DNA of 63,418 nt, counting the filler, from Reclinomonas americana ATCC 50394 (Eukaryota), in the NCBI GenBank assembly GCA_048213135.1. It is 10 parts of 6 records of this genome, joined end to end, with 100 filler letters (N's around TTAATTAATTAA, not from the genome) between each part and the next. Parts side by side here need not be neighbours in the genome. Positions count along the whole stretch, not along the records: positions 59,582 to 63,418 come from PS015743.1; 9 more parts are not named here. One strand, given 5' to 3'. Below are positions 60,766 to 63,327 of this stretch, one piece after another. How positions within the stretch are numbered: the first letter of the stretch is position 1; each line of letters begins with the position of its first letter. The notes under the pieces are model-generated. The model worked only from the letters and a program-made list of their open reading frames with translations. It was not told where the DNA came from and did not search any database. Both the position numbers and the translations under genes were made by a program.

Positions 60766-61045
60766 ATGGTGTTCATCTCGATTGAAGGCAGCAACATCAG
60801 CACCACGGTGAGCACACACCTGATGAAGAAATGTTCATCACTGCGAGAACTTTTCACAAGTGTGTGCGCTCACACTTGCTCTCTCTCTCTCTCTTACACA
60901 CACGCACATGCAGATCACACAAGAGCCGAGCTTGCCGTACAACTTGACCCCGCAGCAGGCGAGCACGGAGCAGGGCAGTGGAATGCCGTTGATGCCGTTT
61001 GGCGCCTTTGTGGGCTACATGACGGAGAATGGATGGTGGCCGTGA
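60766..61045 (+). CDS. Small peptide gene 1 (57 aa), unknown family
   Basis: Exons 60766-60807 and 60914-61045: MVFISIEGSNISTT|ITQEPSLPYNLTPQQASTEQGSGMPLMPFGAFVGYMTENGWWP*. Paralogous to genes 2 and 3 with identical intron position. Confidence 0.8.
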
Positions 61046-61087
61046 GCATCCCGGAGGAAGAAGTGCGAGAAAGGGTGGGGCACAAGA

Positions 61088-61320
61088 TGCACAGGCAGAG
61101 TGAAAAGCCTCTGTCGGTTTTTGTGTGTGGAGATCATATTGCCTTTCTTGTGTTGCATTGTTCATCATTGGTTTGTGTGTAGGGAGAAGAAGGAGGGAGA
61201 AACATAGAGAAGCGTGCACACAGTGACGCAGAGTGCAAAGCCTCTGGTTTCTTGACGGTTTTTGTTTAGTGGGGGATCATCTTGCCTTTCTCGTGTTGAA
61301 TTGTTCGTCATGGTTTGTGT
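61088..61320 (+). promoter_or_regulatory. Conserved 3'-flank element (two copies after gene 1; third copy at 62636-62710 after gene 2)
   Basis: Shared GAGTG(A/C)AAAGCC...GGTTT...GATC.T.TTGCCTTT...GT..(C/A)AT.GTTC; the AAGCC/GGTTT arms can pair. Confidence 0.5.
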
Positions 61321-61461
61321 GAGCGCGCTTCTTGGGAGCAGTCGCTGGAAGCATGGATCCTTTGCTCGATGTTCCCCTTGGCGATTGTTGGACGTTCGTC
61401 ACTGTTGCTCCCTCCGCGCCCTTCGAATTCGTGCTGCCTCTGTATCTAGGCAGGTGCGTGG

Positions 61462-61547
<86 letters not shown>

Positions 61548-61715
61548 NNNNNNNNNNNNNNNNNNNNNNNNNNNNNNNNNNNNNNNNNNNNNNNNNNNNN
61601 NNNNNNNNNNNNNNNNNNNNNNNNNNNNNNNNNNNNNNNNNNNNNNNNNNNNNNNNNNNNNNNNNNNNNNNNNNNNNNNNNNNNNNNNNNNNNNNNNNNN
61701 NNNNNNNNNNNNNNT

Positions 61716-61802
<87 letters not shown>

Positions 61803-62278
61803 CTCTGCCTTTCCCTATGATCGTCACGCAGTGGTGACTTCTGTTCGTGAGGCACAGCTGGTGTCGGCTCTGTCCATGATGCGCATGCATAAGTCCTTGG
61901 TTCTGGCTCTGGTCAGATGTAGGCGCAGTGCTTTGTGGGCATCTCGAGCTGGCGATGGCAGGCACTGTGTTGCGATCCCCGAGTGTGATCGTTGGCTTGG
62001 CTACGGACCGCTCTACTCGCCGACTCGTACAAGTGAAGCAGGGGAAGCAGATACATGTACTGGAGATGGTGCTCTTCACAACGATCGAGCTCGAGGGCAT
62101 CAAGCAGACGTCCTTGATTCTGCCGGTGAGTGATTCTGTGTTTGGGTACGTGTCTGCGGAGTTGCACAACTAACTGCGAGCTCATCAGCGATCTACTTGA
62201 GCGTCCGCCCAGCAGCACGTCCTACCGCAATCATCGACTGATATATTGAGAACGCATTGATCCCCAAGAGAGGCAAAC

Positions 62279-62577
62279 ATGGTTCTCATCTCCATTGATG
62301 GCAGCAACATCAACACCACGGTGAGTGCATGTGCGCGCGCTCGTAGATTCAAGATCGCTGCTCTCGTCGCTGCGAGAACCACTGCGAGAAGTCTTTGTGG
62401 ACTCACTCCCCACTCACACTCGCACAGATCACGCAGGAGGTCACGCAGCCGGGCCTGCCGTTCAACCTGAGCCCAGAGCAGGCGTTCATGGAGGAGCGCT
62501 GTGGAATGCCGATGATGCCGTTCAGCGAGTTCATGGGAGGCGGCTTTTGCGCAGCGGAAGGCATGTGCTGGCCGTGA
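62279..62577 (+). CDS. Small peptide gene 2 (63 aa)
   Basis: Exons 62279-62320 and 62428-62577: MVLISIDGSNINTT|ITQEVTQPGLPFNLSPEQAFMEERCGMPMMPFSEFMGGGFCAAEGMCWP*. Confidence 0.8.
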
Positions 62578-63041
62578 GGAGGTGGGGGAAGGGTGGAAGA
62601 GAGAGACCGAGAGAGACACGCACTGCACTACACAGTGCACGGGCTGAGTGAAAAGCCACGCTCTCGGTTTGTGAGAGAGATCGTCTTGCCTTTTTTGCGT
62701 GACATCGTTCGCTCCTCCTCTCACTGTGATAGGTGGCTCAGTGGGTCACGCTATTCTAGCGGCACAGCCACGCAGGGGGGCATTCAGAGGAGTGGCACGA
62801 CGCACTGCAGCTGCAACGTATCGCGATCGGGAAATAGGCTGCAGCTGCGAAGTTGGGTGCGTGTCGGTGATTCGCGCGCACGTCGCGTGATCTGTGTAAG
62901 CGCTCTAGCCCGGGACTCGACCCGCTGCGCTCCCATCGACCCCAGCACGTGCACGACGTCAGCAGGTTAGCAGTCGTCCTGCACGTGATTCGACGTCGAT
63001 CAATACAAGACCGAAGCGCAATCGAGACGCGAGGGGAGAAC

Positions 63042-63327
63042 ATGGTGTTCATTGCGATTGACGGAAGCAACATCAATACCACGGTGAGAGCGAGGGAAGG
63101 AAAGAGAGAACCAAGCGTTTGTGTGTGATAACTGGCAGCTCAGTGAGTGCGAGAAGATGCGGCTTACTCTGGCTCTCTCTCTCTCCTCGCAGGTCACGGT
63201 CACTCTGCCGTACGGCCTGACGCAGCAACAGGCAGCCATTGAGCAGAGCCAGGGCATGCCTCTGCAGCCGTTTGGCGAGTTTGAGAATACGATGCAGGTC
63301 ATTGAGCAGATCAACTTGGGCATCTGA
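63042..63327 (+). CDS. Small peptide gene 3 (58 aa)
   Basis: Exons 63042-63083 and 63193-63327: MVFIAIDGSNINTT|VTVTLPYGLTQQQAAIEQSQGMPLQPFGEFENTMQVIEQINLGI*. Confidence 0.8.

Follow-up and report, generated by a model that had tools for sequence, protein, structure and literature searches.

Three small genes are arranged in tandem on the plus strand between positions 60766 and 63327 of a 63,418-nucleotide stretch of DNA from Reclinomonas americana ATCC 50394 (assembly GCA_048213135.1), here termed the window. Judged from their sequence, the three loci are very probably real genes of two exons each, spliced once. The interpretation tentatively favoured here, with somewhat less than even confidence, is that of a real, old, tandemly duplicated, lineage-restricted and fast-evolving nuclear family of small, soluble, acidic intracellular proteins. 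The three copies are made up as follows (aa, amino acids).

60766..60807, plus strand: gene 1 exon 1, 42 nt, 14 codons, opening at the first in-frame ATG
60808..60913, plus strand: gene 1 intron, phase 0, 106 nt, GTGAGC...CAG
60914..61045, plus strand: gene 1 exon 2 including the TGA stop, peptide P0001 of 43 aa; full product 57 aa
62279..62320, plus strand: gene 2 exon 1, 14 codons; its ATG is the first start codon after a stop in the open reading frame (ORF) table
62321..62427, plus strand: gene 2 intron, phase 0, 107 nt, GTGAGT...CAG
62428..62577, plus strand: gene 2 exon 2 including the TGA stop, peptide P0002 of 49 aa; full product 63 aa
63042..63083, plus strand: gene 3 exon 1, 14 codons
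63084..63192, plus strand: gene 3 intron, phase 0, 109 nt, GTGAGA...CAG
63193..63327, plus strand: gene 3 exon 2 including the TGA stop, peptide P0003 of 44 aa; full product 58 aa

The three introns, all of phase 0, have GTGAG at the 5′ end and CAG at the 3′ end, and the exon junction is in phase in three of three copies. The intron lengths of 106, 107 and 109 nt are not divisible by three, thus the conserved frames of the two exons meet solely by way of the predicted GTGAG...CAG splicing. GTGAGT...CAG also borders an intron of the gene for the selenocysteine-specific elongation factor (eEFSec) in the window, the exons of which were placed by homology. The ATG of each copy is the first in-frame ATG, and conservation between the copies starts at this codon and stops at the donor. 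In gene 2 an in-frame stop, read by eye, is found 21 nt upstream of the exon 1 ATG.

Nucleotide identity between the copies is 36–41% in the 150 nt upstream, 81–88% in exon 1, 38–55% in the introns and 55–73% in exon 2. Gene 1 taken by itself displays 86–88% identity to the other copies in exon 1, compared with 36–37% in the 150 nt upstream, and its intron is 51–55% identical to the other two introns over the aligned positions. A degenerate pattern of exon 1 plus donor has three matches in the window where 0.00 are expected (100 shuffles). With the spliced products as queries, tblastn against the window finds the three loci alone at E < 1e-3, the next match being at E = 0.086. A preliminary description of this DNA had reported a tandem paralogous family of two-exon genes that a plain ORF track overlooks. 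The tblastn and pattern searches bear this out, the 42-nt exon 1 and the same phase-0 intron are present in all three copies, and the coordinates, the lengths of 57, 63 and 58 aa, the shared motif and the three tails are all as it gave them.

The sequence from gene 2 to gene 3 is uninterrupted. Genes 1 and 2 are set apart by a gap of 167 N within a (GT)n run, at 61548–61714, and because of this gap their spacing is uncertain. The (GT)n microsatellite, broken by the gap, occupies 61466–61547 and 61715–61801. Runs of (GA)n are found after the gene 3 stop (63340–63390) and repeatedly at 57800–58170.

Coding potential and products

The GC content at third codon positions (GC3) of the three coding sequences is 0.78–0.84, compared with 0.65–0.77 in the known exons of the window, and the GC content of the introns is 0.48–0.58. 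A codon-usage log-likelihood ratio (LLR) was trained on the exons of eEFSec, HSP70 and phosphatidylinositol 3-kinase (PI3K) in the window. The proposed frame ranks best of the six possible frames in six of six exons, with an LLR of 0.32–0.63 bits per codon against 0.12–0.59 in three held-out known exons. Insertions and deletions between the copies are frame-keeping within the coding region. The rate of synonymous substitution (dS) between the copies, calculated by the Nei-Gojobori method (NG86), is 0.45–0.91; the duplicates are therefore old.

Exon 1 has a ratio of nonsynonymous to synonymous differences per site (pN/pS) of 0.09–0.41, and third codon positions account for 3 of 5, 4 of 6 and 6 of 8 differences in the three pairs. 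The many synonymous differences mentioned in the preliminary description are thus found in exon 1 but not in the exon-2 core, where replacements dominate. Over the conserved head, which comprises about the first 45 residues, the ratio of nonsynonymous to synonymous rates (dN/dS, NG86) is 0.32–0.37. In the alignment of exon-2 peptides P0001–P0003 (termed A1), 13 of 49 columns are invariant, and a stretch Gly-Met-Pro-x-x-Pro-Phe-x-x-Phe is located near the end of the head. By these comparisons the head is weakly constrained, apart from a framework of positions with Leu, Pro, Gln, Ala, Glu, Gly, Met or Phe that do not vary.

The C-terminal tails are 14–20 residues long and divergent. The pN is 0.15–0.25 in the head; in the tail it is 0.44 between genes 1 and 2 and 0.62–0.81 in comparisons with gene 3. 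The tails of genes 1 and 2 can be aligned and both close with Trp-Pro-stop, whereas no frame gives an alignment for the gene 3 tail. The tail had been called hypervariable. The contrast between a conserved head and a diverging tail stands, but the word is too strong for three sequences, two of which have alignable tails. A dN/dS comparison of leader and tail had also been proposed; tail dN/dS is 0.43–0.49 where estimable, and a value above 1 was found in no comparison of the three sequences, head or tail.

A conserved protein on the antisense strand was considered and rejected, as genes 1 and 2 have one frame open on that strand and gene 3 has another; by codon usage, too, the sense frame is preferred.

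The products are soluble and acidic, with masses of 6.2–6.9 kDa, a pI of about 4 and a net charge of −4.5 to −6.5. One of the 178 residues is Lys, Arg or His, compared with 12.8% expected from the known exons of the window (binomial P 7e-10, with the reservation that the copies are not independent). Cys is absent from genes 1 and 3, and in gene 2 the Cys is followed by just two residues to the end. Hydropathy maxima are about 1.0 over 15 residues and 1.5–1.7 over nine residues, and the N-terminus is without a basic residue. By this rough hydropathy test none of the three products has a membrane helix or a segment resembling a signal peptide, in agreement with the earlier statement that a classical signal peptide is missing. 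An AlphaFold2 model of the gene 1 exon-2 peptide, made with alignment A1, displays two short helices at a mean confidence (pLDDT) of 66, and a two-helix model of 43 residues at this value is too weak for a meaningful fold search.

Relatives were sought with the exon-2 peptides or alignment A1 as input to the family, PDB, database and structure runs, the spliced products being used against the window only. Pfam gave zero matches to the exon-2 peptides at E ≤ 10. A word-indexed search of 5.8 billion proteins gave no candidate of near length and 155 longer candidates, none of them at E ≤ 1. HMMER found no match at E ≤ 0.001 among 1,835,955,588 representatives, where a 46-position profile built from three sequences has low power. 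There was no usable match in the ESM Atlas. In metagenome contigs the peptide pattern had 267 matches, none of which was confirmed, and the exon-1 DNA pattern had none. A profile search of PDB sequences returned five chains at E ≤ 10, the best being an NMDA-receptor chain at E = 0.58. A known structural microprotein family, a match to which was to count against the preliminary description, was thus found for the exon-2 peptides neither in Pfam nor in the PDB. At the RNA level, Rfam gave no match to the whole window at the gathering score and two chance-level matches to positions 60400–63418 at E ≤ 1, and a tRNA scan found none. As far as these sequence searches reach, the family is undescribed, as had been proposed. 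The database searched with the eEFSec ORF, however, lacks the proteome of this genome, since there is no self-match among the best 120 relatives; these are 38–53% identical, and their sources include animals as well as algae and slime moulds. A close relative of this intron-bearing eukaryote is missing from the protein databases searched.

Shared non-coding elements and neighbouring genes

Two kinds of family-specific element are found outside of the coding sequence, a 3′ flanking element and an intron decamer with the consensus STGCGAGAAS.

61082..61182, plus strand: 3′ flanking element copy a, gene 1, about 40 nt past the stop
61226..61322, plus strand: 3′ flanking element copy b, gene 1, a tandem duplicate 143 nt after copy a
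62630..62726, plus strand: 3′ flanking element, gene 2, about 55 nt past the stop
60841–60850, plus strand: intron decamer CTGCGAGAAC, gene 1 intron
62370–62379 and 62382–62391, plus strand: intron decamer, two copies, gene 2 intron
63147–63156, plus strand: intron decamer GTGCGAGAAG, gene 3 intron

The 3′ element is about 85–95 nt long. Copy a of gene 1 and the gene 2 copy are 76% identical over 85 nt, and the element is conserved about as well as exon 2. Each of two patterns for the element has three matches in the window, all behind the stops of gene 1 (twice) or gene 2; the survey covers these two genes, the window ending 91 nt past the gene 3 stop. No reading frame is kept between the copies of the element on the plus strand, and its consensus fold is weak (−8.7 kcal/mol). 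It is likely to be a shared control element of the 3′ untranslated region (UTR) or a 3′-end element. Directly behind the stop, genes 2 and 3 both have a purine-rich block of 30 nt, found by blastn.

All four matches of the decamer in the 63-kb window are in the introns of the family, which have otherwise diverged. A count of four is unremarkable in itself, as it is reached in 7 of 100 shuffles; the notable point is their confinement to 322 nt of intron. Presence of the decamer together with the 3′ element suggests a common post-transcriptional or transcriptional control of the copies. A shared promoter motif was also looked for, and no k-mer of 8–12 nt is common to the three 400-nt upstream regions.

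An ORF of 35 codons is found on the plus strand between genes 1 and 2, at 62066–62173, and has an LLR of 19.1 in the scan of 62015–62170. As a fourth, degenerate copy of the family it was rejected (z = 0.1–0.4 against 2000 shuffles). Either a small gene unrelated to the family or an alternative first exon is possible.

The window was surveyed by scanning 186 ORF translations (16 + 45 + 125) with Pfam. The matches were to HSP70, eEFSec, PI3-kinase, three GT2 glycosyltransferases, a Kelch protein, a CRT-like transporter, a WD40 protein and a weak PCMT fragment.

2858–5565, minus strand: HSP70 gene, in several ORF pieces
6299–8800, plus strand: eEFSec gene, at least four exon blocks
14728–15717, 16605–17654 and 21293–22261, minus strand: GT2 glycosyltransferase ORFs, three within 8 kb
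19956–20879, minus strand: Kelch-repeat ORF, among the GT2 ORFs

The GT2 ORFs may be a second tandem paralogue group. An eEFSec gene is present, therefore the organism probably makes selenoproteins. The plus strand of the HSP70 locus matches the Pfam family 'NAD-GH' (PF10712) with up to 181 bits, which we take to be the familiar antisense-of-Hsp70 artefact.

The window consists of pieces joined by 100-nt linkers, and therefore gene order across the joints is not assured. The nine joints (44 N + 12 bases + 44 N) are at 12743–12842, 16043–16142, 29131–29230, 31442–31541, 37386–37485, 39239–39338, 53733–53832, 55677–55776 and 59482–59581. In the last of these, the one that was read, the 12 bases form a linker with stops in all six frames. 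The three small genes sit in the piece 59582–63418.

Interpretation of the family

On the interpretation favoured here, each gene would be spliced once and translated to an acidic protein of 6.2–6.9 kDa almost free of Lys, Arg and His. The protein would remain inside the cell, a location proposed because there is neither a signal for the endoplasmic reticulum (ER) nor a membrane segment. Composition and the pattern of conservation are consistent with the first 45 or so residues forming a small binding module, with which the three proteins would dock onto one shared partner. Its parts would be the segment encoded by exon 1, hydrophobic-polar in character, a short predicted helix and the invariant stretch Gly-Met-Pro-x-x-Pro-Phe-x-x-Phe. 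The free C-terminal tail would be little constrained and may have drifted or been replaced between the paralogues. If expressed, the genes add an unannotated microprotein family to a poorly sampled eukaryotic lineage. They would also illustrate two blind spots, as two-exon microgenes are overlooked by plain ORF tracks and tryptic proteomics misses products that lack Lys or Arg, those of genes 1 and 3 having no trypsin site. Co-regulation of the copies can be approached through the 3′ element and the intron decamer.

Several observations weigh against this interpretation. The gene models, the splicing and the products are predictions from the DNA sequence. In the 27-codon exon-2 core pN/pS is 0.44–0.65, which is weak constraint, and the differences there are spread evenly over the codon positions (10/5/4, 8/8/8 and 10/8/10 in the three pairs) and are mostly replacements. 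One antisense frame of the same core has a similar pN/pS of 0.46–0.73. Thus the substitution pattern alone is no proof of translation. For the proposed binding module no known motif, confident fold or partner was found, and queries of exon 2 only would miss matches that need the first 14 residues. A conserved head with a diverging tail fits a peptide precursor equally well.

Young or decaying ORFs without protein function, which may be transcribed into non-coding or regulatory RNA and whose frames would persist through recent shared ancestry and a GC3-rich composition, are a quite unlikely explanation of the loci. The pN/pS of the exon-2 core and its lack of a third-position excess are what such ORFs would display, no homologue was found in the databases searched, and the 3′ element and intron decamer are conserved about like exon 2. 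The copies are nevertheless old by their dS, yet ATG, splice sites, phase and open frame are intact in three of three and the indels keep the frame. Codon usage favours the sense frame in all six exons, the low pN/pS of exon 1 is contrary to this explanation, and the near-total avoidance of Lys, Arg and His is a sign that the product is under selection. It is more doubtful still that the exons are parts of longer or alternative transcripts, having either coding exons past the TGA or upstream first exons such as ORF 62066–62173. The stops of genes 1 and 2 are within CCGTGAG, a potential GTGAG donor, and a pyrimidine-rich conserved element ending near an AG is found behind both of them, but the gene 3 stop is without such a donor. 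Hypothetical third exons, drawn by eye, have an early stop in gene 1, are rich in Arg, Ser and Cys in gene 2, and are mutually unrelated. The 3′ element keeps no plus-strand frame between copies, and beyond the exons and this element blastn between the units gave just the 30-nt purine-rich block of genes 2 and 3. ORF 62066–62173 has coding-like codon usage and a candidate GTGAGT phase-0 donor after 20 codons; it lacks, however, similarity to the family in the shuffle test described above, and none of the 155 longer-protein candidates reached E ≤ 1. A truncated ubiquitin-like (beta-grasp) module appears far-fetched. The likeness is a visual one to the first 55 residues of ubiquitin (an N-terminal hydrophobic hairpin, a turn of Glu-Pro-Ser, a helix and a stretch of Gly-hydrophobic-Pro), a lead and not a test, with the AlphaFold2 helix about where expected. 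A comparable by-eye likeness of ORF 62066–62173 failed its shuffle test. The exon-2 peptides have no Pfam match to PF00240 and relatives at E ≤ 10, none of the five PDB chains at E ≤ 10 is ubiquitin-like, and the products have no Gly-Gly end, are too short for an equivalent of the last strand of a complete, five-stranded beta-grasp and have no basic residues to speak of.

The genes may also encode leaderless peptide precursors, although this is unlikely. The head of about 45 residues would serve for recognition, cleavage by a peptidase would take place at or after the invariant Pro of the Gly-Met-Pro-x-x-Pro-Phe stretch, and C-terminal peptides of 14–20 residues, modified or exported independently of the ER, would act as pheromones, signals or toxins. 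The conserved head and divergent tail are in keeping with this, and equally to be expected of a fast-evolving small protein with a free C-terminus. Invariant prolines just ahead of the divergent part, a C-terminal Pro in two of three copies and the tandem gene family also suit a precursor. The missing signal peptide is compatible with precursors of the yeast a-factor type, and with those of the MSDIN type as a review describes them (PMC6514808). No conserved follower is present behind the variable part, however, and there is no CaaX box; gene 3 is without a terminal Pro or Trp. Tail dN/dS is not above 1 where estimable, and with three sequences 'hypervariable' is inseparable from neutral drift. 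The preliminary description had seen no modifying enzyme, and the 186 ORF translations indeed include no prolyl oligopeptidase, other protease or tailoring enzyme by Pfam; the nearest loosely relevant match is a PCMT-type methyltransferase fragment with 21.5 bits, 18 kb away. Eukaryotic genes of RiPPs (ribosomally synthesized peptides that are modified post-translationally, a core peptide being freed by proteolysis) need not be clustered. The preliminary reading of the genes as RiPP, pheromone or toxin precursors is not upheld by the data, in which a signal-like segment, a CaaX box, a conserved follower and a protease or tailoring enzyme in the window are all missing. The full scheme, in which the three genes would be the visible part of a deep-branching protist's system of peptide signals or peptide toxins that works independently of the ER, with a prolyl-specific peptidase freeing active, possibly modified peptides of 14–20 residues and paralogues of different specificity, is decidedly improbable. 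If true, it might be the first for a protist. No protist-encoded RiPP was reported in a narrow literature survey of titles and the starts of abstracts, which is too thin a basis to establish a first. A pheromone or RiPP-precursor role, if true, would be of wider interest, and nothing here prefers it over a small intracellular protein.

Comparison with known systems

The MSDIN (cycloamanide) family is found in Amanita, Galerina and Lepiota, and its precursors are processed by the prolyl oligopeptidase POPB (PMC6514808). According to that review, the precursors are about 35 residues long and consist of a 10-residue leader, a hypervariable core and a conserved recognition (follower) sequence, and the core has invariant prolines on both sides and is cut by prolyl oligopeptidase (PMC6514808). 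Like MSDIN genes, the three genes form a multi-copy family whose small, ribosomally made products lack an ER signal, are conserved in the N-terminal part and have an invariant Pro ahead of the more variable part. The correspondence of the prolines is partial, as Pro precedes the tail in three of three copies and is terminal in two of three. Unlike MSDIN precursors of about 35 aa with an MSDIN leader, the products are 57–63 aa long and start with Met-Val-(Phe/Leu)-Ile. The conserved part is also longer, about 45 residues, and the variable tail runs to the stop with no follower. There is no sequence similarity, and a prolyl oligopeptidase gene was not found among the window ORF translations; the family is not a member of the MSDIN group.

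Fungal pheromone precursors of the a-factor type are short, signal-less and farnesylated, have the active part at the C-terminus and a defining CaaX box, and often occur in several diverged copies. The three genes are comparable in being short, signal-less and present as several diverged copies. However, the CaaX box is absent from all three products, and the family does not belong to this type. Secreted precursors of the conotoxin, cyclotide or dikaritin type are different in another respect, as the products here have no N-terminal ER signal peptide by the rough hydropathy test.

Tandem families of orphan microgenes are as such nothing unusual. The three genes are similar to such taxonomically restricted tandem families of small proteins in having no outside homologue in the databases searched, short and fast-evolving products, weak constraint and diverging termini. 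Unlike the general orphan category, which predicts no mechanism, this family displays a near-absence of basic residues together with 3′ and intronic elements of its own.

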